This document shows positions 24,404-58,290 of a DNA stretch of 64,000 nt, piece after piece (position 1 is the first letter of the stretch; every line of letters starts with the position of its first letter). The stretch spans positions 1-64,000 of IMG/VR virus record IMGVR_UViG_3300033512_000218; one strand, given 5' to 3'. Both the position numbers and the translations under genes were made by a program. Below the pieces are notes generated by a model. That model searched no databases, was not told the origin of the DNA, and saw only the letters and a list, made by a program, of their open reading frames with translations. This stretch comes from a virus.

Positions 24404-24947
24404 ATTTTATTTCAAATAATAATTCAGTACCATTCTGAAGTTTAAGTGTTAAATTATTGATTGTATCATTTCTAACAGGATTATATGAATCACACATACT
24501 AAACTTAATAATATCAATGAAGTATTGATTTCCTTCATATAATTTTCTTTTATTTGGCTTTTTTAATTCATTATTAATATACTTATGGCACATCATATGA
24601 TTTGATACCAATTCATAAACTTTCTCCCAATTAACATTATATTTATCAAATAGATGTTTATATTCATCTATATATTTAAGAGATTTAAATTCATGTCCAA
24701 TATTACTAATTTTAAATCGTACTAATCTACCCATATAATAAATAGGTTTATATTGTGTACTTTCTAATTTACCTAAATCATGAAATATAGCGGATATTAG
24801 TAAATCAATATCACTATTCCAAAATGTACAAACATTATTATAAACTTGAATTATATGATTATAAACACTTCCTTCAGGATGATGTATTGTATCCTGTGTA
24901 CATTTCTTTAATTTTTCTATTATTTCTGTTGGTAGTAAATTTATCAT
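24402..24947 (-). CDS. HD-domain phosphohydrolase (CCA-enzyme HD-like)
   Basis: Q...HHPEGSVYNH, AIFHDLGK, GHE, NHM. Confidence 0.85.
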   Translation of the reverse strand: MINLLPTEIIEKLKKCTQDTIHHPEGSVYNHIIQVYNNVCTFWNSDIDLLISAIFHDLGKLESTQYKPIYYMGRLVRFKISNIGHEFKSLKYIDEYKHLFDKYNVNWEKVYELVSNHMMCHKYINNELKKPNKRKLYEGNQYFIDIIKFSMCDSYNPVRNDTINNLTLKLQNGTELLFEIK

Positions 24948-50814: not shown

Positions 50815-51024
50815 ATGATAGTTGATATTAAATGCCATAAATGTAAAAAAGAATTTGAAGCAGAATGGAATGTGAGAGGAAAATGTCCTAATTGTGAAAA
50901 CAAATATGATTGGACATGGGATGGTGAGTTGTGGAGTGATTTTGAAACTTGTTTTCCAATATTTGAAAGTGAAACGGAAGGTGTTAAAAACTCTTTTTTA
51001 CTTGTAATAGATTGGGATTTTTAA
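50815..51024 (+). CDS. small zinc-ribbon protein
   Basis: CHKC and CPNC. Confidence 0.65.
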   Translation: MIVDIKCHKCKKEFEAEWNVRGKCPNCENKYDWTWDGELWSDFETCFPIFESETEGVKNSFLLVIDWDF

Positions 51025-51026
51025 AT

Positions 51027-51092
51027 TTTAACATTTATTAAGATAATTAAATTTGTATTTTTACTTTATTTATATTATCTTTATAATATAAT
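51027..51092 (+). promoter_or_regulatory. early promoter repeat upstream of cassette array
   Basis: consensus with TATCTTTA variant. Confidence 0.7.
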
Positions 51093-51210
51093 TTAAAATG
51101 AATATTAACCAACAACTGATATTAGGACAGAAACAATGGCTTATATTTGTTGTAAGCAAATAATCACTAAATTGTATGTTATGTACTTTTATCATAATAC
51201 ATTAATCAAA

Positions 51211-51447
51211 ATGGAAAATATAAAAATGAGTTTTAAAGATGCCCCTGTCGGTGCAAGATTTAAGTATCCAAATGATACAAGCGGAAATATTTGGGTTAAA
51301 ATTAATTCATATCCACAAAGTAGATTTGAAAGCGGATTAGGATTGATTTGTAAATGGGAAGGAAATATAAAAAGTTATCAATCTTTTTGCTCGTTTAGTG
51401 ATGAAAATAATGGAATTTCATTTGAAACTGAAATCGAGTTATTATAG
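51211..51447 (+). CDS. cassette 1 hypothetical protein
   Basis: MENIKMSFKDAPVGARF...; stop just before site 1. Confidence 0.65.
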   Translation: MENIKMSFKDAPVGARFKYPNDTSGNIWVKINSYPQSRFESGLGLICKWEGNIKSYQSFCSFSDENNGISFETEIELL

Positions 51448-51448
51448 T

Positions 51449-51581
51449 TGCTAACGGTTGCAAATAAACACAGTAAAAGATATGAAAGAACAAATTTTAG
51501 AAATAGCAGAAAAACTTAGATTAGAACTAATAACTGAATACGAAGCACAAAACCTTTTATTTGGTTTATTTAGTGTTATAC
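51449..51581. repeat. attC-like site 1
   Basis: TGCTAAC..aaataaac..agtaaaag / cttttatt..gtttattt..GTTATAC. Confidence 0.7.
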
Positions 51582-51691
51582 AACGAAGTGAACAGTTGGT
51601 TGCTTTTGTAAAATGGTTAGAAGCTAATTCAGACCACTCAATTGATAGAGGTTGGATAGAAGAATATATTGAAGCAACCAATTGTGTATAA
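51482..51691 (+). CDS. cassette 2 hypothetical protein (starts in hairpin loop)
   Basis: MKEQILEIAEK...; stop TAA lies inside GTATAAC. Confidence 0.7.
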   Translation: MKEQILEIAEKLRLELITEYEAQNLLFGLFSVIQRSEQLVAFVKWLEANSDHSIDRGWIEEYIEATNCV

Positions 51692-51807
51692 CGGCTGAGT
51701 ATTGGCGTTGTTGCCATCATAAACGATTATTAATAACACTAAATTATAAAATTATGACAAAAGTTTCAGAAAACCACGAAGGCAATAACGCTAATACTTT
51801 GTTAGCC
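51686..51807. repeat. attC-like site 2
   Basis: GTATAAC ggctg agtattggcgttgttgcc / ggcaataacgctaatact tt GTTAGCC (16/18 plus 2 G.T). Confidence 0.85.
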
Positions 51808-51978
51808 ACAGTTATTCCTCAATCAAAAGAAGAGTTGTTAGAATGTATTCAAAATTTGATGGGTGTATTTGACACACCAGTTTCAAGAAGAGCAATAAAG
51901 GGTGAATTTGCCGATGAAGTTCGTAAGATAGGTCGTCAAATTTTGGAAAGTAATGGTAAATCAATGTACGATATATAA
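51754..51978 (+). CDS. cassette 3 hypothetical protein (starts in hairpin loop)
   Basis: MTKVSENHEGNNANTLLATVIP... Confidence 0.7.
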   Translation: MTKVSENHEGNNANTLLATVIPQSKEELLECIQNLMGVFDTPVSRRAIKGEFADEVRKIGRQILESNGKSMYDI

Positions 51979-51982
51979 TTGT

Positions 51983-52074
51983 GGCTAACGTATCGTGTAT
52001 GAGCAGTGGCACTTGTACACACTTTCAAATTAGCTACAACGATTATGTGCCATTGCTTATACACGGTGTTAGTG
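51983..52074. repeat. attC-like site 3
   Basis: GGCTAAC gtat cgtgtatgagcagtggcac / gtgccattgcttatacacg gt GTTAGTG. Confidence 0.88.
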
Positions 52075-52109
52075 ACAGTACTTTTTTTAATAATCTAATA
52101 ATCAATTAT

Positions 52110-52664
52110 ATGAAAGCTGAAAAACAAATAATTTACGATGACGAAAATGCAGCCAGATTCGTTGAAAATATCAAAGGTTGGGTTGATATTAATAATCAAT
52201 TTTATGGGAATAATTCAGATTCTGAACATATGGCACGTTGGTCAAGTTGCACACATAAAAAATGTAAATGCGGAAAGCTAATAACTAAAGGATGGACGAA
52301 ATGCGATGAATGTAGAACTAACTCCGAAATTGAAAGATATAACCAACTTACATTTAAAGAATATAATGGTGATATAGTTTATTCACATTATGCTGACCGA
52401 TACTTTATGGATTCTGATGAAATAGAAGATTATTGCTCTGAGGAAGAAATTGAGACTAAAGATTTGAGGCTTGTATTTTGCGAACCAAATAAATTTAGCC
52501 AAATATATAGTGACTATTGGGAAGATGTATTGCAAGAAGATTCAGAAGGCGAATTACCTACGAAGTTACAAGAGGCTTTAGATAATTTAAATAAAATCAT
52601 TTCTGAAATGCCTCCAGCGAGTTATTGCCCAAGTAAAACACGAACTGAATATCGTAGCGTGTAG
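52110..52664 (+). CDS. cassette 4 hypothetical Cys-containing phage protein
   Basis: MKAEKQIIYDDENAA...EHMARWSSCTHKKCKCG...CDEC. Confidence 0.75.
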   Translation: MKAEKQIIYDDENAARFVENIKGWVDINNQFYGNNSDSEHMARWSSCTHKKCKCGKLITKGWTKCDECRTNSEIERYNQLTFKEYNGDIVYSHYADRYFMDSDEIEDYCSEEEIETKDLRLVFCEPNKFSQIYSDYWEDVLQEDSEGELPTKLQEALDNLNKIISEMPPASYCPSKTRTEYRSV

Positions 52665-52670
52665 TATTGG

Positions 52671-52765
52671 CACTAACGGTTGGGTGTATGAAACGTAACC
52701 TAACTACAAACTTTAGTATTAACCACTGAACTATAATAGGTTATGTTTTATACACCTTGTTATAT
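52671..52765. repeat. attC-like site 4
   Basis: CACTAAC ggttg ggtgtatgaaacgtaaccta / taggttatgttttatacacc tt GTTATAT. Confidence 0.88.
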
Positions 52766-52862
52766 GCAGTGCGGACTTATAGTGGAAATGTTGATACGAG
52801 AGATGAACCTTTTTGTTTTATTTTTTGTGCGGTGGGAAAGTAATTAACTTAATAACTAAAAT

Positions 52863-53435
52863 ATGAAATACGAAATAATATACGCTGATCCAGCTTGGGA
52901 ATACAATACAAAGGAATGTTTGGCTAAAACATCAATACTTAATGGAGAATTGAATACCCATTATAGCACAATGACATTGAAAGACTTAAAAGCATTAGAC
53001 GTGCAAAGTATTTCAAATAAAAATTGTATGCTGTTTTTGTGGGTTGTAAGCCCGATGTTAAAAGAAGGTATTGAAGTGATGGAAGCGTGGGGCTTTAAAT
53101 ATGCCACAATAGCTTTTATATGGCACAAGCAAAGAACAAACCCTGGACATTATACAATGAGTGAATGTGAAATTTGCTTGGTAGGGAAGCGTGGCACAAT
53201 ACCAACTCCAAGAGGAGCAAGGAATGTAAGGCAATTTTTATCTGAAATGCGAGGCAAACATTCTGCTAAACCTAATGAAATAAGAACGAGAATTGATACA
53301 ATGTTTCCAACTCAAAATAAAGTAGAATTATTTGCAAGGCAGAATGTTTTAGGATGGGATGCTTGGGGTAACGAATGCGAAAACTCTATAACTATTGGAG
53401 GGGAGGAAAAAAAAATTAAAACAAATTGCGTATAA
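52863..53435 (+). CDS. cassette 5: MT-A70 family adenine methyltransferase
   Basis: IIYADPAW, HYSTM, LFLW, WGFKY, HSAKP, ELFAR, GWDAWGNE; stop inside GTATAAC. Confidence 0.92.
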   Translation: MKYEIIYADPAWEYNTKECLAKTSILNGELNTHYSTMTLKDLKALDVQSISNKNCMLFLWVVSPMLKEGIEVMEAWGFKYATIAFIWHKQRTNPGHYTMSECEICLVGKRGTIPTPRGARNVRQFLSEMRGKHSAKPNEIRTRIDTMFPTQNKVELFARQNVLGWDAWGNECENSITIGGEEKKIKTNCV

Positions 53436-53500
53436 CGAATGGTGCTATGAGCAGGTTTGTGTTGCGCCTGCGGCAAACTTGCTTATAGCACGTGTTACTG
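53430..53500. repeat. attC-like site 5
   Basis: GTATAAC gaatg gtgctatgagcaggtttg / caaacttgcttatagcac gt GTTACTG. Confidence 0.88.
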
Positions 53501-53568
53501 GCTGGCTCGGTTAATTAACCACTAAACTCAAATCGAAGCATTAAACAAAAGAATTTAAAAAAAGAGGG

Positions 53569-54330
53569 ATGGAAAAAAATAAAATATATAACGAAAATTG
53601 CCTTGAAACAATGGCTAAAATGCCTGATAAGTTTGTGGACTTAACGGTTACTTCACCGCCTTATAATATGCGAACACGTATAAGAAACGGACAATATACC
53701 ACAAGAGAGAAAAGCGAACATTTTAGCAAAAAGTATAAGTATTTTGACGATGCTTTACCAATAAATGATTTTTACGAATTTCATAGCAGCGTATTGACTG
53801 AACTATTGAGAGTATCAAAAATTGTTTGCTACAACTTTCAAATAGTGACAGGAAGCAAAGAAGCGTTTTTTAAAATCATTGGCGACTTTAACAAGGATAT
53901 TAAGGATATTATCATTTGGGATAAAGGAAGCGGACAGCCTGCAATGCACGGAATGGTTTTAAATAGCTGCTATGAAATGGTATTGATATTAGAAGATGAT
54001 AAAAGAGCAGGGAGAGCAATACAAAATGCTAAATTCAAAAGAGGTGAAATGAATAACATTTTGAGAATCGGCAGAGGCAAAAAAGTATCTGATGTTCACG
54101 GTGCAATTTTTCCAGAACAACTACCATTTGATTTGATAAACGCTTTTTCAGAAAAAGAAGCATTGATTTACGACCCTTTTATGGGAAGTGGAACTACTGG
54201 ATTAGTAGCAAGTAAATTAGGTAGAAACTATATTGGAAGTGAAATAACAGAAGAATATTGTCAAATAGCTGAAAATCGTATTAAAGAGTGCGGTGGGCTT
54301 TTTTTGAACTCTTTTGAACCGAAATGTTAA
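53569..54330 (+). CDS. cassette 6: N4-cytosine/N6-adenine DNA methyltransferase (beta class)
   Basis: VTSPPYN, H.A.FP, YDPFMGSGTT, GRNYIGSEI. Confidence 0.92.
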   Translation: MEKNKIYNENCLETMAKMPDKFVDLTVTSPPYNMRTRIRNGQYTTREKSEHFSKKYKYFDDALPINDFYEFHSSVLTELLRVSKIVCYNFQIVTGSKEAFFKIIGDFNKDIKDIIIWDKGSGQPAMHGMVLNSCYEMVLILEDDKRAGRAIQNAKFKRGEMNNILRIGRGKKVSDVHGAIFPEQLPFDLINAFSEKEALIYDPFMGSGTTGLVASKLGRNYIGSEITEEYCQIAENRIKECGGLFLNSFEPKC

Positions 54331-54355
54331 ATCGCAGCACAAATGTAGAGCTTGC

Positions 54356-54450
54356 CAGTAACGTTGGTGCTATGAGCAGGTTTGCCTTGCAGAAATGTTC
54401 AAATTTAGCACTAATGTTATTGGCAAACTTGCTTATAGCACGTGTTATGT
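54356..54450. repeat. attC-like site 6
   Basis: CAGTAAC gttg gtgctatgagcaggtttgcc / ggcaaacttgcttatagcac gt GTTATGT; arms same as site 5. Confidence 0.88.
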
Positions 54451-54483
54451 GCCGTTTTTATTCACGAATTTAAAATTAGTAAG

Positions 54484-54996
54484 ATGAAAAAATATGATGT
54501 AATTTATGCCGACCCTGCTTGGCGATATGACTTTAGCAAAAGTAATAGCAGGGAAATTGAAAACCAATACCCAACAATGACCATAGATGAAATATGTGGA
54601 TTAAAAGTACCTGCAAAAGATAACGCTGTGCTTTATATGTGGGCAACTGCACCAAAGCTATTGGAAGCAATAAAAGTATTAAATGCGTGGGGCTTTGAAT
54701 ATAAAACACAAGCAGTTTGGGATAAGGAAATTATCGGAATGGGTTATTGGTTCAGAGGACAACACGAAATATTAATAGTTGCTACAAAGGGTAAATTTTC
54801 ACCACCCGAACAACCATTAAGAATAAGTAGTGTGATTAAGGAAAGGAGAACCAAGCATAGCAAGAAACCGATTTATGTAAGAGATATGATTGAAAAATGG
54901 TTTCCCGATTCTGAACGATTAGAAATGTTTGCCCGAACAAGCGGTGAAAATTGGGATGTTTGGGGAAATGAAGTTGAGAGTAGTGTCGCTCTTTAA
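54484..54996 (+). CDS. cassette 7: MT-A70 family adenine methyltransferase
   Basis: VIYADPAW, YPTM, LYMWAT, WGFEYKT, HSKKP, EMFAR, WGNE. Confidence 0.92.
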   Translation: MKKYDVIYADPAWRYDFSKSNSREIENQYPTMTIDEICGLKVPAKDNAVLYMWATAPKLLEAIKVLNAWGFEYKTQAVWDKEIIGMGYWFRGQHEILIVATKGKFSPPEQPLRISSVIKERRTKHSKKPIYVRDMIEKWFPDSERLEMFARTSGENWDVWGNEVESSVAL

Positions 54997-55002
54997 AATG
55001 GC

Positions 55003-55096
55003 ACATAACGGTTGCGTGTATATTTCAGGTTTGCTTGTACGAACTTTGAATTATGCACAAATGCTGATGCAAACTTGAATATACACGTTGTTAGTA
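55003..55096. repeat. attC-like site 7
   Basis: ACATAAC ggttg cgtgtatatttcaggtttgc / gcaaacttgaatatacacg tt GTTAGTA. Confidence 0.85.
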
Positions 55097-55167
55097 ACAG
55101 TAGCATACGACAATGTTAATTTGAAACGCTACACTTTTTATTTTAAATTTTTAAGGAGGGATTTTTT

Positions 55168-56148
55168 ATGAATATTTTGAGTTTATTTGATGGTATAAGT
55201 TGTGGGCAAATAGCGTTGGAACGTGCTAATATTAAAGTTGATAAATATTACGCAAGTGAAATTGATGCCAATGCTATTAAAGTTACGAAACACAACTACC
55301 CAAATACAATACATATTGGAAGTGTGAATGATATTGATTTTAGTAAATACCAAGATATTGATATTTTAATTGGTGGTAGCCCCTGCCAAGACTTATCACG
55401 TTGTAATTTAGAAAATAAGGGATTAGAAGGAGAACGATCTAAATTATTTTTTAAATACATAGAATCGTTAAAAATTACTAAGCCTAAATATTATGTATTT
55501 GAAAATGTTGGAAGTATGACCAATGAGAATATGGAAACCATAAGTGAATATTTCGGACATAAACCAATTTGTATAAACTCAAATTTAGTTTCTCCACAAA
55601 GCAGAGAAAGATATTATTGGACAAATATACCAAACGTAATACCACCAATAGATAAAAACATTTTGGTTAAGAATATAATTGAAAAAACCGTACCCGAAAA
55701 GTATTACTTAAAAATGGATTATGCTTATGTACCAAAGGAAACAAAACATAATTCAAAAAGCGGATTACAATTTGTTTGTGGTATTATTAGCAAAAAGAAA
55801 TGGCTTGATGATGGGAAAGGAAATTCACGTAATTTTTCACAAGGAAATAGAGTTTATTCGATAAATGGAAAATCTTGTACTATAAATGCAAATGCTGGAG
55901 GATTAGGTGGTAAAAGTGGATTATATTATTTAGAAGATGGAAAGGAATTTAGCAAAAGCAATATAAGAAGATTAACACCATTAGAAACAGAACGATTACA
56001 AACAATACCTGACAACTATACCGATATAATAAACGAAACAAATAGGTACAAATGTATTGGCAATGGTTGGACGGTAGATGTAATTGCACATATTCTTTCT
56101 TTTATAAATGGTTTTGAAAAAACCACAGATCGTGGGCAAAAAATTTAA
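55168..56148 (+). CDS. cassette 8: DNA cytosine-C5 methyltransferase
   Basis: SLFDGISCG, GGSPCQ, FENV, QSRERYYW, GNGW. Confidence 0.93.
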   Translation: MNILSLFDGISCGQIALERANIKVDKYYASEIDANAIKVTKHNYPNTIHIGSVNDIDFSKYQDIDILIGGSPCQDLSRCNLENKGLEGERSKLFFKYIESLKITKPKYYVFENVGSMTNENMETISEYFGHKPICINSNLVSPQSRERYYWTNIPNVIPPIDKNILVKNIIEKTVPEKYYLKMDYAYVPKETKHNSKSGLQFVCGIISKKKWLDDGKGNSRNFSQGNRVYSINGKSCTINANAGGLGGKSGLYYLEDGKEFSKSNIRRLTPLETERLQTIPDNYTDIINETNRYKCIGNGWTVDVIAHILSFINGFEKTTDRGQKI

Positions 56149-56196
56149 AATAAAAAATTATTATGCACGAACCTTGCTACGAAGAAAGGCTATTGT

Positions 56197-56241
56197 TACT
56201 AACTATTATATATAAACAAGTGTATTTAATTTATTGATTAT
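56197..56241 (-). other. array-terminal site (candidate attI equivalent)
   Basis: TAACTATTATATATAAA-N10-TAAtTTATTGAtTAT, repeated with identical spacing at 57841-57882. Confidence 0.6.
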
Positions 56242-56306
56242 GAATACAAAAGACAAAACAAATCTTGAAATTTTCGAAGATATTTCTTGAGTTGAAAATT
56301 ATAAAT

Positions 56307-56372
56307 TTTAACATTTATTAACACAAATTAATTTTGATTTAGTTAATAAATGTTTTATCTTTGTGATATAAT
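56307..56372 (+). promoter_or_regulatory. conserved early promoter repeat
   Basis: same consensus. Confidence 0.85.
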
Positions 56373-56388
56373 TTAAAAAATTAAACAA

Positions 56389-56820
56389 ATGAAACATTTT
56401 ATTACATCATTAAGAGCAACCTCAAAAGAAGAAACATTAAATCGTTTTAAAGAAACAAATGATTATAATGAAAATAAAGTATATTCTGCTAATCTCAATT
56501 GGTATACACAGGATTGGGATATATACGAATATGATTTAAAAGAAGGTGATTATATTGCATTTGAATATGAATATGAAATAGGTGACCCTGAAATAATAGT
56601 TGATAATATTTCATTTGTATATGAAGATAGAGTAATCGTACACTTTTTATATGGTTATAAATCTGAAACTTGTACTATTTTAAAAAAAGATATTTTAGCA
56701 ATAGGAAATAAACTAAATGGAACAACAAAATTATTAGGTTGGACTGGCTTATTTGATATTGTAAATGAAACAGATTTTTTAATTAAAAATATAGAATATG
56801 AAACAAAATCTAATAGTTAA
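56389..56820 (+). CDS. hypothetical protein
   Basis: ORF after promoter repeat. Confidence 0.65.
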   Translation: MKHFITSLRATSKEETLNRFKETNDYNENKVYSANLNWYTQDWDIYEYDLKEGDYIAFEYEYEIGDPEIIVDNISFVYEDRVIVHFLYGYKSETCTILKKDILAIGNKLNGTTKLLGWTGLFDIVNETDFLIKNIEYETKSNS

Positions 56821-57010
56821 AAAAGGACAAATAATTAAAACCGAGAGAAATGAAATTTTCAAAGTTAAATTGGAAAATGATAATATTATTACCTGTACAA
56901 TATCAGGTAAAATGAGATTAAATAAAATTCATTTAATTGAAGGTGATTTCGTAACGGTTGAATTATCTCCTTATGATATGACACGAGGTAGAATTAGTTG
57001 GAAAGGATAA
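56798..57010 (+). CDS. infA: translation initiation factor IF-1
   Basis: FKVKLEN...ISGKMR.N.I.L..GD.V.VELSPYD.TRGRI. Confidence 0.93.
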   Translation: MKQNLIVKKGQIIKTERNEIFKVKLENDNIITCTISGKMRLNKIHLIEGDFVTVELSPYDMTRGRISWKG

Positions 57011-57067
57011 ATTCTATAATATTAAATTTATTATCTATTTTATTATTGGTTTTATAAGATTATATGT

Positions 57068-57390
57068 TTATTTTATTAAAGTTGATACTGTTTCTTCTTC
57101 TTCTTCAGTAAAATATGATAATAAATATTTAATTAATTCAATTGATTTTTTGGCGTATTTTTATTTAGTTTTCTTTTTAAATTATCTAATCTATCTGCTA
57201 TTTTAATAATTATTAATTTATTTCTTGTATCAGAATCGAGTTGTGGTAATATTTGAGTTAAATGATGTAAAGGTTCATTATCAATATTATCAGATGTTTT
57301 GGTTTCACTACTTATATATCTGATTATTTTTTTAGCTTTATCATATATATTAAGTTTATCGATATCTCCTCCTTGTTCTATATAATCATG
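57068..57390 (-). pseudogene. truncated, frameshifted RelA/SpoT-type HD hydrolase
   Basis: manual translation HDYIEQG...IIIKIADRLDNL; no start codon; 5' part missing where the solo cassette begins. Confidence 0.7.
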
Positions 57391-57396
57391 AAATGT

Positions 57397-57489
57397 TTAT
57401 AGCAGTTTGCAATATGAAACGGTTGCATTATAAAACGTTTCAATTTTAGTAATAGCTTGACAGCAACAGTTTTATATTGCTTGTTAGGT
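57397..57489. repeat. attC-like site of solo cassette (left core AGC instead of AAC)
   Basis: TTATAGC agttt gcaatatgaaacggttgc / gcaacagttttatattgc tt GTTAGGT. Confidence 0.78.
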
Positions 57490-57504
57490 ATAATAATTTT
57501 TATT

Positions 57505-57843
57505 ATGGGAATGTACACACAATTTATTATCGAATGCAAGTTAAAAGAAGAAACTCCTTACAAAATTATCGAATGTTTAGAAGATATGATAAACGACATT
57601 GATAATGATTTATTTACTTATAATCGAAATCCTTTAAACAATTATTGTGAAAGCAATAAATATTTTAAATCATTTAAAGATTTAGTGTTAAAAGCACATG
57701 GGGATATAAAAAACTATCAGACTGATATTGATAGGTTTACTGATTTTATAAAACCTTATGTGGAAATAGGGTTTTTAGAAAATAATTCTTTTGCTAAATC
57801 ATTATACGAAGGATATGATGAGTGGACGTATTATTGTACCTAA
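57505..57843 (+). CDS. solo cassette hypothetical protein
   Basis: MGMYTQFII...IKNY..DI..F.DFIKPY; bracketed by GTTAGGTATAATAA / TTATTGTACCTAAC; stop inside the AAC core. Confidence 0.75.
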   Translation: MGMYTQFIIECKLKEETPYKIIECLEDMINDIDNDLFTYNRNPLNNYCESNKYFKSFKDLVLKAHGDIKNYQTDIDRFTDFIKPYVEIGFLENNSFAKSLYEGYDEWTYYCT

Positions 57844-57882
57844 CTATTATATATAAAAATCTCAACCTAAGTTATTGACTAT
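57838..57882 (-). other. second array-terminal site (candidate attI equivalent)
   Basis: 17/17 and 13/15 identity to the two boxes at 56200-56241. Confidence 0.6.
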
Positions 57883-57897
57883 ATTTAAAATTATATT

Positions 57898-57963
57898 TTT
57901 AACATTTATTAACATAATTAAATTTGTATTTTTGATTTATTTAATCTATCTTTGTAATATAAT
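57898..57963 (+). promoter_or_regulatory. conserved early promoter repeat
   Basis: same consensus. Confidence 0.85.
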
Positions 57964-57978
57964 TTAAAAAATAATAAA

Positions 57979-58290
57979 ATGAAAGATTTATCAAATTTAT
58001 CAATTAGTCAATTGGAAAAATATAAGGATGATTATATTGCCTTATACGTTGGTGATTTTTATAAACCTTTGGATTATAAAAAAACAATTCAATATATTAA
58101 TCAATTATTGGATTATAAACAAATTAAATTAAAAAATAAAATTCAGAAAAAAATATATACTCAAAATGAAGTATTTGGATTATTATCAAAAATATTACAG
58201 GACTATGACACTGTACTACAAGATAATAATATTAATACATTATTGATACAGTTTGATAAAAGGGAATGGTTTAATAAACACAAAAAATAA
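57979..58290 (+). CDS. hypothetical protein
   Basis: ORF after promoter. Confidence 0.6.
   Translation: MKDLSNLSISQLEKYKDDYIALYVGDFYKPLDYKKTIQYINQLLDYKQIKLKNKIQKKIYTQNEVFGLLSKILQDYDTVLQDNNINTLLIQFDKREWFNKHKK

Follow-up and report, generated by a model that had tools for sequence, protein, structure and literature searches.

The DNA analysed here (the window, 64,000 nucleotides) is positions 1 to 64,000 of IMG/VR record IMGVR_UViG_3300033512_000218, a 139.6-kb record that is about 60% complete. The record carries nine hairpin sites in three arrays. Seven chained sites and one solo site lie in the window with no integrase nearby, as in a CALIN. The features are listed below by window position; 74884, cited further on, is a record position.

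51452..51578, + strand: site 1, furthest left and the weakest; a 6-nt spacer between TAAC and an AT-rich stem, then a 74-nt loop and GTTA
51689..51804, + strand: site 2; TAAC, GGCTG, 21-bp stem with 2 G.T, loop, TT, GTTA
51986..52071, + strand: site 3; 19-bp stem, G.T at positions 8 and 13
52674..52762, + strand: site 4; 19-20-bp stem, G.T at positions 8 and 13
53433..53497, + strand: site 5; 17-18-bp stem, G.T at positions 8 and 13, arms identical to those of site 6
54359..54447, + strand: site 6; 19-20-bp stem, G.T at positions 8 and 13
55006..55093, + strand: site 7; head of the C5-methyltransferase cassette
51482..54996, + strand: cassette genes on the sites' own strand (51482-51691, 51754-51978, 52110-52664, 52863-53435, 53569-54330, 54484-54996)
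55006..56203, + strand: complete cassette; head 7, C5 DNA methyltransferase gene (55168-56148), closing box ATTGTTACTAAC
56192..56239, + strand: array 1 terminal site, attI-like; closing box ATTGTTACTAAC, then the non-hairpin sequence TATTATATATAAA...TTATTGATT
56240..56290, + strand: recombinase gene remnant; MNTKDKTNLEIFEDIS, then stop
57403..57486, + strand: solo site; 18-bp stem, G.T at position 8, left TAAC decayed to TAGC
57505..57843, + strand: solo cassette gene; no Pfam family
57833..57880, + strand: solo array terminal site; ATTGTACCTAAC, then TATTATATATAAA...TTATTGACT

Each of the cassette genes between 51482 and 54996 is flanked by GTTAnnnnCAGT in front and ATTGnnnnTAAC at its end. 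Three of them encode methylases (52863-53435, MT-A70; 53569-54330, N6_N4 methylase; 54484-54996, MT-A70), and four DNA methyltransferases are found among the cassette genes of the record's three arrays. The loop of site 1 contains the ATG of the next gene (51482), and that of site 2 contains the ATG at 51754.

The original prediction counted about 20 mismatches that are G.T on the top (coding) strand and no A.C, with one G.T (TATGA/TTATA) conserved in sites 3, 4, 5, 6 and the solo site. Eight stems could be scored, all but that of the ninth site in the third array, and an ungapped comparison of their arms gave 121 Watson-Crick pairs, 12 G.T, 0 A.C and 4 others. In the outer repeats, where each site's right flank pairs with the left flank of the site after it, there are about 10 further T.G or G.T pairs and a single A.C at position 14, outside the 12-bp box. 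Our total of about 22 top-strand wobbles against 0-1 A.C thus agrees with the earlier count. The TATGA/TTATA wobble was likewise seen in all five sites named, at stem position 8, and a second G.T occupies stem position 13 in sites 2-6.

Equal folding of the two strands would have spoken against a strand preference. With DNA parameters, the top strand is the more stable at 9 of the 9 sites in the record (sum -150.2 vs -115.3 kcal/mol), including the weak site 1 (-6.6 vs -4.9); with RNA parameters, it is favoured at 8 of 9 (sum -305 vs -239 kcal/mol). Against shuffled sequences, sites 3, 4, 5 and 7 have z-scores of -4.2, -3.9, -4.2 and -2.0 on the top strand and -2.8, -1.3, -2.0 and -2.2 on the bottom strand. 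At site 7 the strands fold about equally, which counts against the explanation that we favour below.

The same bias is found in related phages, where about 60 contigs yielded 132 distinct hairpins. The detector used gave credit to Watson-Crick pairs alone and so penalised G.T and A.C alike. These stems contain 189 G.T/T.G against 14 A.C/C.A, with the wobbles concentrated at stem positions 7-8 and 12-14. At 126 of the 132 sites the top strand is the more stable one, by a mean margin of 2.1 kcal/mol (Wilcoxon p 2e-21). Hairpin heads share descent and the raw counts are therefore not independent; a partial answer is to cluster the hairpins at 75% identity, where 43 of 59 clusters favour the top strand and 2 the bottom. 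The outer boxes are still more one-sided: 122 mismatches pair on one strand only, by wobble, against 1 of the other kind, and 111 of 141 cassettes have T.G at box position 11. An exception that counts against our explanation is C.A at stem position 5, which favours the other strand and occurs at 7 of the 132 sites in phages and 9 of 31 in bacteria. Pairing is kept despite very different stem sequences (2067 Watson-Crick pairs at the 2305 stem positions of the 132 sites), and box positions 5-9 are free to vary in sequence, yet paired in 130-139 of 141 cassettes.

All window sites and the 132 relatives have the attC layout R''(..AAC)-L''...L'-R'(GTT..), including the unpaired central spacer and the variable loop. 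Extrahelical (bulged) L-box bases of the kind that set strand choice were absent: the stems align gap-free with G.T at fixed positions, and an excess of unpaired bases occurs only in the spacer (5 nt vs 1-2 nt).

In related phages, rows of cassettes end ATTGnnnnTAAC|TAnnATATAT, immediately before a recombinase gene (the bar marks the junction). Among the 80 loci retained out of 282 viral contigs encoding a relative of the recombinase, about 60 have xTAAC|TAnnATATAT 37-58 nt upstream of a protein of 267-269 aa, with up to 10 chained cassettes before this terminal site. Site polarity relative to the recombinase strand is constant in the phage loci by 210 to 1. The protein is a Xer/IntI-like tyrosine recombinase (PF00589, PF13495 and the usual catalytic residues). 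The record itself keeps only a remnant of 16-28 codons; its better-kept twin at record position 74884 (MNTKGKSTLEIFENNLRVK...) matches the intact enzyme of phage locus L027 at 11 of the first 19 residues, compared by eye. Searches of the record with PF00589 and the L027 enzyme gave no match, and at about 60% completeness a copy elsewhere is possible. The recombinase gene is decayed at arrays 1 and 3, which leaves the three arrays as orphan rows. Membership of IS200/IS605 was rejected: a search of the record for PF01797 (Y1 HUH TnpA) gave no match, and the enzyme adjacent to the arrays in relatives is a PF00589-type tyrosine recombinase.

The closest relatives of the recombinase in both sequence and structure are XerA and XerC/D. 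Its closest structure-database match is archaeal XerA (4a8e, E 1e-53) and its best sequence match is NF040815, at 181-192 bits below the NCBIfam cut-off of 220; the XerC and XerD profiles give 137-164 bits against cut-offs of 330-335, so that profile scores do not place it in Xer/dif. Unlike the Xer genes, the phage gene lies beside cassette arrays and not at a chromosome dimer-resolution site, and its sites are long hairpins, unlike the 28-bp double-stranded dif. The IntI profile TIGR02249 matches in two pieces at 146-159 bits (cut-off 265), and the additional domain between patches II and III of IntI is absent: query residues 190-216 (27 aa) stand against 188-264 (77 aa) of VchIntIA (2a3v).

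Closeness to an enzyme that recombines double strands and absence of the IntI insertion, the part of IntI in contact with extrahelical bases, both count against our explanation, and they agree with an alternative that we consider unlikely. In this alternative, a Xer-like recombinase acts on double-stranded DNA at the TAAC core, the G.T positions reflect two slightly different protein-binding half-sites, and the hairpins are cargo with another job (promoter, start codon or transcription end). Heads do act as exchangeable modules, the loops hold conserved words, and 18 of 143 cassettes have their only usable ATG inside the loop, where GenBank likewise places the start of Freya10_77. However, hairpin and terminal sites have only TAAC in common at the junction and no common 6-8-bp overlap region, which disfavours a two-strand reaction. 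Variable stem and box sequences with pairing kept indicate base pairing and not sequence read-out, and mismatches that nearly all pair on one strand, in stems and boxes alike, also speak against it.

Junctions were mapped by comparing genomes. All mappable mobile segments finish ...TAAC|, and the exact phosphate is hidden by the TAAC common to both sites. Cassettes 0 and 6 of phage locus L115 are identical from just past TAAC via hairpin and gene to the next TAAC and differ in what follows, the terminal site in one and a different hairpin in the other. Loci L136 and L137 diverge directly past TAAC. A lake-water contig (X2 record 15) matches window positions 55006-56203 exactly end to end (97.5% identity) in different surroundings, X4 record 21 begins at 55005, and X1 and X4 contigs depart from the window past 55009. 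Among cultured Polaribacter phages, Freya_1 has an empty site, ATTGTTTACAAC|ACCCC, where Freya_10 has a 4.9-kb insert with spacer and hairpin directly past AAC and the end ATTGTTGCTAAC|ACCCC. Insertion at a non-hairpin site beside the integrase gene is seen in this pair and in the L115 copy at the terminal position, and about 60 loci have such a terminal site.

The predicted crossover at the AAC side is borne out by these segment ends and by the arrays themselves, which open with a hairpin and close hairpin-free, with TAAC joined to the terminal site. The unit had been predicted to be hairpin-then-gene, and co-movement of each gene with its downstream hairpin would have contradicted it. Pairs of identical hairpins with a single homologous neighbour have it downstream in 4 cases and upstream in 0. 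Gene and upstream hairpin travel together in L115 cassettes 0 and 6, L118/L120, the lake contig and Freya_1 vs Freya_10; a gene kept with its downstream hairpin was found in 0 of the 4 one-sided cases and in none of the metagenome contigs. That part of the prediction holds, but as a full description it falls short, since new combinations of head and gene body also arise at the GTTA side. Contigs of X1 and X4 carry the site 6 gene body from 54443/54444 onward with other heads in front, and Freya_9 and Freya_10 have a breakpoint at the hairpin|GTTA side. The site 3 head has 93% identity to a head at L163 and the site 6 head 98.7% to one at L129, in both cases before an unrelated gene, and a single 40-nt head stands before 15 unrelated genes. 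One crossover point on one strand leaves some of this unaccounted for.

Breakpoints at the GTTA side are one of several features expected of ordinary attC sites, in which the bottom strand folds, crossover is at G|TT, the unit is gene-then-hairpin and the G.T bias is incidental. The order AAC...GTT behind each stop codon is attC-like, the surplus of unpaired bases is on what would be the bottom strand's 3' arm, like the extrahelical bases of classical sites, and bacterial relatives show exactly this gene order. We nevertheless regard this account as very unlikely: it conflicts with arrays that start with a hairpin and end without one, with the one-sided cases, with genes that begin within the upstream loop and with the lower stability of the bottom strand, which moreover has only 3 nt between TAA|C and the stem.

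The bacterial relatives are sites of the same family on Bacteroidota chromosomes, which also carry a TAAC|TAGTATATATG terminal site. There the sites lie downstream of the recombinase (30 of 31) on the opposite strand (31 of 32), and in 10 intervals out of 10 the cassette genes run antisense to the polarity of the sites. A gene before its attC, with the non-coding strand folding, is therefore the arrangement of the chromosomal relatives and not of the phage arrays, where the wobble-rich strand is the coding strand; the sites are indeed inverted relative to the genes, as proposed. Joining on the TAAC side means that phage cassettes are back to front compared with classical bacterial integrons. 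The proposed reversal of classical attC applies to the cassette gene, which is turned round, and not to the chemistry: seen from the terminal site next to the recombinase gene, the strand that folds and the 5'-AA|C polarity are those of the classical integron.

The original prediction named the sense strand as the structured substrate, as single-stranded DNA or possibly RNA. Folding supports the former. The RNA option, in which G.U stems in a polycistronic transcript serve processing, stability or termination, would suit a wobble-rich strand that in phages is the transcribed sense strand, and the large RNA fold energies. It is disfavoured because the chromosomal sites are antisense to their genes. 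The box wobble, moreover, joins sequences on opposite sides of a whole gene, an Rfam search returned no family match, the stems have no T-run after them and the sites are demonstrable DNA breakpoints. We judge an RNA role to be very improbable.

We therefore favour, as the probable though by no means certain explanation, that these are integron-like gene-cassette recombination sites of Bacteroidota phages, in which the folded coding strand is joined to the terminal site. The wobble bias, the covariation and the absence of a common overlap region suggest that a folded single strand recombines, which would involve one strand exchange with resolution by replication. The coding strand, when single-stranded in vivo, would fold into four parts. 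An outer box of 12-14 bp would form between ATTGnnnnnTAAC at the end of the cassette and GTTAnnnnnCAGT directly after the hairpin, followed by an unpaired, asymmetric spacer that is longer 5' of the stem (about 5 nt) than 3' of it (1-2 nt), a stem of 18-20 bp and a variable loop. Three pairs are conserved as G.T, at box position 11 and stem positions of about 8 and 13, and turn into A.C mismatches on the complement. The short Xer/IntI-like tyrosine recombinase would recognise this fold and cut 5'-TAA|C. Tyrosine recombinases cut 3' of their own binding arm; with a cut at TAA|C and the 5-nt spacer, the central region would be 6 nt long on the coding strand, against 3 nt on the other. The cut strand would then be joined to the double-stranded terminal site TAAC|TAnnATATAT just upstream of the recombinase gene, much as IntI joins attC to attI. 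Wobbles and lopsided spacer would do the job of the classical extrahelical bases, marking the folded form and choosing the strand. The cassette genes lie on the folding strand behind their own hairpins, pointing at the terminal site.

Classical integrons (IntI, attI, attC) recombine a folded bottom strand (Bouvier et al. 2009, PMC2727003; Nivina et al. 2016, PMC5027507). The phage system shares with them one-gene cassettes between imperfect hairpins, AAC/GTT cores, an unpaired central spacer, a variable loop, conservation of site structure over sequence, one favoured strand and the appearance of new cassettes at a non-hairpin site beside a tyrosine recombinase gene. Unlike theirs, the phage recombinase has 267-269 aa without the IntI insertion of about 50 residues; the stems have three conserved G.T and a 5-nt vs 2-nt spacer in place of bulged bases; the outer box of 12-14 bp is cassette-specific; genes lie on the folding strand behind the hairpin, toward the terminal site and recombinase gene; and heads are re-used before unrelated genes. 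The PeSLs of T4-type phages, said to have been presented by Arbiol et al. in 2010 as mobile regulatory cassettes, are reportedly stem-loops with expression signals before small accessory genes, linked to gene shuffling, and by this description resemble the phage hairpins. By description too, they are set apart: we know of no dedicated recombinase, AAC/GTT cores or cassette-specific closing boxes in PeSLs.

No published description of this phage cassette family was found in the literature. One such site is listed by Qi et al. (2023, PMC9892861) in the CALIN of Polaribacter phage P12002L, which like the present arrays is an attC-like cluster in a flavobacterial phage with DNA methyltransferase genes and no integrase. 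The P12002L_attC1 primer sequence has the same anatomy (TAAC, 5-nt spacer, stem, CGTTTTAAT loop, short spacer, GTTA). That study took the sites as ordinary attC, tested them with IntI1 and does not describe a cognate recombinase, terminal site, strand bias or gene orientation; P12002L_attC1 was the sole non-integrating site of six (Qi et al. 2023, PMC9892861).

A more tentative proposal, possible but rather doubtful at present, is that G.T wobbles and a lopsided spacer evolved independently as another way of selecting the strand in single-stranded site-specific recombination, replacing the extrahelical bases and the IntI-specific domain, and that one enzyme produces two outcomes. If so, a single exchange at TAA|C would move head and gene together, and a complete two-step exchange between two folded sites would swap hairpin heads only, which would account for identical heads before unrelated genes. 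Phages and Bacteroidota chromosomes would then share the machinery and carry their genes in opposite orientations.

The 139.6-kb IMG/VR record is ~60% complete (CheckV), and the window is its first 64 kb. G+C content is ~20% in the window, from which the 51.4-56.2 kb stretch stands apart at 33-36%. Every gene of this stretch is on the + strand, four of them encoding DNA methyltransferases (two MT-A70, one N6_N4 and one C5), and one type of site lies behind almost every stop codon. Read 5' to 3', the site consists of xxxxTAAC, 4-6 unpaired nt, an 18-21-bp stem with a 14-74-nt loop and its returning arm, 2 unpaired nt and GTTAxxxx. The right flank of a site (GTTAnnnnCAGT) is complementary not to its own left flank but to that of the following site (ATTGnnnnTAAC); therefore each gene lies inside its own 12-14-nt inverted repeat, which has a T.G wobble at position 11 in the majority of cassettes. 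Below, the hairpin part of a cassette is called the head, the gene part the body and the outer repeat the box. Hairpin candidates elsewhere in the window, at 24831, 37641 and 42547, were judged not to be sites.

Cassette arrays of the record and the features at their right ends
Array 1, window 51452-56239, genes on the + strand: sites 1-7
Array 2, window 57403-57486: a solo site, with its cassette
Array 3, record G000:C1 73900-74900 (73.9-74.85 kb), outside the window: two cassettes and the same terminal site, with its TAAC at 74846
Terminal site, right end of arrays 1 and 2 (window) and 3 (record): xxxxTAAC, then TATTATATATAAA...TTATTGAYTAT, no hairpin
Putative recombinase stump behind array 3, record G000:C1, after the TAAC at 74846: MNTKGKSTLEIFENNLRVKKIIIKLKNT and a stop, better kept than that of array 1

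Between arrays 1 and 2, an IF-1 homologue (PF01176, E 1.8e-20) is encoded at window 56798-57010 (+). A promoter-like word, TTTTAACATTTATTAA then TATCTTTG..TATAAT-like boxes, occurs nine times on the + strand and five times on the - strand of the record (window 51026, 56306 and 57897, and 11 more places), including positions ahead of array 1 and immediately behind the terminal sites of arrays 1 and 2.

A short ORF (MNTK...LEIFE...) lies to the right of the terminal site at arrays 1 and 3. Scanning viral contigs for TAACTATTATATATAAA gave 97 matches, most of them chance occurrences in AT-rich DNA; about ten have the same terminal site and a recombinase. Some viral contigs that match the terminal word have behind it an intact ORF, 266-269 aa long, that encodes a tyrosine recombinase (PF00589 + PF13495) with the usual catalytic residues. 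Since the same terminal site precedes the intact gene in these relatives, we read the short ORFs of this phage as the stump of that gene. No second tyrosine recombinase was found in the record (139.6 kb, ~60% complete). The strand-specific hairpins had also raised single-strand transposition of the IS200/IS605 type; the record has no Y1 transposase, and adjacency to the recombinase explains the sites better.

The closest match of the recombinase is archaeal XerA (4a8e), with VchIntIA third; it scores under every NCBIfam cut-off and does not have the ~50 residues at the place of the IntI-specific insertion. A profile search found relatives in at least 282 viral contigs. More than 560 bacterial contigs also encode one, and the best 80 loci of each set were fetched. 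About 60 of the 80 phage loci have xTAAC/TAnnATATAT 37-58 nt ahead of the start codon, and up to 10 cassettes could be traced upstream of the terminal site by box-to-box complementarity.

The original prediction had counted about 20 G.T mismatches and no A.C on the top (coding) strand, a tally that is right for the arms and outer repeats. When the arms of the record are compared without gaps, 121 positions are Watson-Crick pairs and 12 are G.T; A.C does not occur, and 4 mismatches are of other kinds. The G of each G.T is on the 5' arm, at stem positions 8 and 13; the position-8 wobble is TATGA over TTATA in sites 3, 4, 5 and 6 and the solo site. The two strands fold unequally: the top strand is stabler at all nine sites with DNA parameters (sum -150 vs -115 kcal/mol) and at eight of nine with RNA parameters. 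Against shuffles, the top strand of sites 3, 4 and 5 reaches z of about -4, compared with -1.3 to -2.8 for their bottom strand, and at site 7 the strands tie. At window 54349-54429, the loop of site 6 contains TAGCACTAATGTTATTGGCAA, a possible pairing partner, via three G.T, of the left box and spacer (TTGCCAGTAACGTTGGTGCTA); both DNA and RNA minimum-energy structures favour this alternative fold, which may be a trace of a fused second site.

The G.T observation is confirmed and generalises across the family. In 132 distinct hairpins, collected with a detector that counts Watson-Crick pairs alone, 2067 stem positions are Watson-Crick pairs. A G.T whose G is on the 5' arm occurs 177 times, T.G 12 times, A.C or C.A 14 times and other mismatches 35 times, and the wobbles concentrate at stem positions 7-8 and 12-14. 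The top strand is stabler in 126 of the 132. Clustering at 75% identity leaves 59 groups, of which 43 favour the top strand and 2 the bottom one. The 5' spacer is usually GGTTG and the 3' spacer TT. Across 141 cassettes the variable box positions 5-9 are paired in 92-99%, and box position 11 is a T.G wobble in 111. Strand-biased mutation (deamination) as the source of the G.T pairs was rejected because the wobbles keep fixed positions and a fixed orientation across heads of unrelated sequence. At stem position 5, a C.A recurs on the otherwise favoured strand in 7 of 132 phage and 9 of 31 bacterial sites, which is a G.T on the opposite strand. The prediction that the folding strand is the sense strand, with the site inverted relative to the genes, is supported as an interpretation; the strand that is cleaved, and the function of the wobbles, we only infer.

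The crossover had been predicted at the AAC side of the site. An array begins with a hairpin and ends with a TAAC joined to the terminal site. In L115, a phage locus with a duplicated cassette, the two copies do not differ anywhere between the base that follows TAAC and the closing TAAC, a span that includes hairpin and gene; behind one copy lies the terminal site, behind the other a different hairpin, and their upstream genes are unrelated. The pairs L118/L120 and L136/L137 behave in the same way.

Twenty metagenome runs (X1-X20; lakes, wastewater, sediments, mats and fish) each contain 7-12% of the words of window 50900-58000. The phage itself was not found in them, no run exceeding 12% of these words. 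Four runs were examined, and what matches in them is individual cassettes or heads, most strongly near the methyltransferase cassettes (52.8-55.2 kb). We claim no habitat for the phage and use the contigs purely to see individual cassettes in independent settings. A lake-water contig matches window 55006-56203 at 97.5% identity, exactly from the site 7 TAAC to the TAAC of the terminal site, with both flanks unlike the window. A second metagenome contig begins at window 55005, and further contigs diverge from the window after 55009, into different hairpins.

Cultured Polaribacter phages (L180, L181, L182, L183 and L266, with Freya_1, Freya_9 and Freya_10; ten isolates, one host strain) have genomes of 43,978-48,920 bp, and the whole length difference among Freya_1, _9 and _10, which were compared, is the array ahead of the recombinase gene. 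At that place Freya_1 has an empty site, ATTGTTTACAAC/ACCCCTATAAC, and Freya_10 has 4.9 kb with 12 annotated ORFs between the same AAC and ACCCC; the insert starts with spacer and hairpin and ends in ATTGTTGCTAAC. Array shape, the duplicate, the metagenome contigs and the cultured phages concur in supporting a crossover on the TAAC side.

The mobile unit would then be a hairpin followed by a gene. In 18 of 143 cassettes the sole usable ATG lies inside the hairpin loop, with a frame that runs across the 3' arm and the GTT core, so that the gene is inseparable from its upstream hairpin. Hairpin pairs of at least 95% identity with a single homologous neighbour share the downstream gene four times and the upstream gene never, and no gene co-moving with its downstream hairpin was seen among the mapped cassettes. 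If the model is true, circular cassettes would be head plus gene, joined ATTGnnnnnTAA/C-head.

This unit is the main pattern but not the sole one. Near-identical heads form a small pool (18 clusters). One 40-nt head, GTCYGATGATAAACAATCGTTTTAATGTTGTTTATCATTT, is present in 20 copies at 12 loci (L172, L174, L123, L137 and L101 among them), 95-100% identical, and the genes behind it are of 15 unrelated kinds; P12002L_attC1 of Qi et al. 2023 shares its loop word, CGTTTTAAT. Other phages have the window's heads 3 and 6 with unrelated genes behind them. In two runs there are contigs that begin to match the window at 54443/54444, the GTTA of site 6, and have the ends of other hairpins ahead of that point. 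Between Freya_9 and Freya_10 a head-plus-gene difference was expected; the difference is a 307-nt body only, between hairpin foot and terminal site, which counts against a strict unit. L137 cassette 0 and L172 cassette 2, a possible proof of head-gene co-movement, were discounted because the 40-nt head that they share is promiscuous. Bodies thus change heads, which indicates a second re-assortment point on the GTTA side. Possibly, a two-step exchange between two folded sites would swap heads alone, and a single exchange would move head and gene.

The original prediction had allowed that the structured substrate might be RNA. Among bacterial loci that encode a recombinase relative, the best 80 come mostly from Bacteroidota and have the phage-type sites (5-nt vs 1-2-nt spacers, box chaining and a TAAC/TAGTATATATG terminal site). 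Their arrays (L216, Flavobacterium cheonanense; L201, Flavobacterium sp. NRK F7; L253; L192; others) lie downstream of a recombinase gene of 40-48% identity, run gene then hairpin, and have the terminal site adjoining the 3' end of that gene. No array upstream of the recombinase was found among 75 bacterial loci, and the polarity is opposite: sites are opposite in strand to the recombinase gene in 31 of 32 cases and downstream of it in 30 of 31. In 10 of 10 intervals the cassette genes run antisense to the polarity of the sites, and the wobble bias tracks the site (38 vs 18), not the coding strand, which ties it to recombination polarity and makes an RNA function of the hairpins unlikely. An Rfam search of the stems found no known RNA family, only two sub-threshold miRNA look-alikes. 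Judged from the sites, the chemistry would be the same in phages and chromosomes; gene orientation within the cassette and the array's side of the recombinase gene differ. Opposite gene orientation on one site family is a built-in control between DNA-level and RNA-level explanations.

The textbook example of a system that recombines folded single-stranded DNA is the integron, in which the strand is chosen via bulged bases read by a domain that only IntI has. By analogy, the hairpin-cassette system works like an integron: it keeps the integron logic, but its enzyme is plain Xer-like, bulged bases are absent and the strand bias resides in wobble pairs. It departs from integrons in the IntI domain, the extrahelical bases and, in phages only, the gene order. 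IntegronFinder 2.0 reports nearly no integrons in Bacteroidetes. For Polaribacter phage P12002L, Qi et al. 2023 (PMC9892861) listed a CALIN that includes two methyltransferases; P12002L_attC1, taken from their primer table, has the anatomy of the present site family and was the single site of six not integrated by IntI1. Our literature search found no paper on the cognate recombinase, terminal site or strand bias of these arrays. Bartlau et al. (PMC8776804) interpreted the integrase of Freya as indicating lysogeny; in several flavobacterial phage families, however, this 'integrase' looks like an enzyme for cassette capture.

The system is widespread, given the numbers of viral and bacterial contigs that encode a relative of the recombinase, and cultured Polaribacter phages differ in array length. 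It also shows that phages gather anti-restriction methyltransferases as cassettes. It offers a direct route to asking what single-strand site recognition minimally needs and how integron integrases arose from Xer enzymes.
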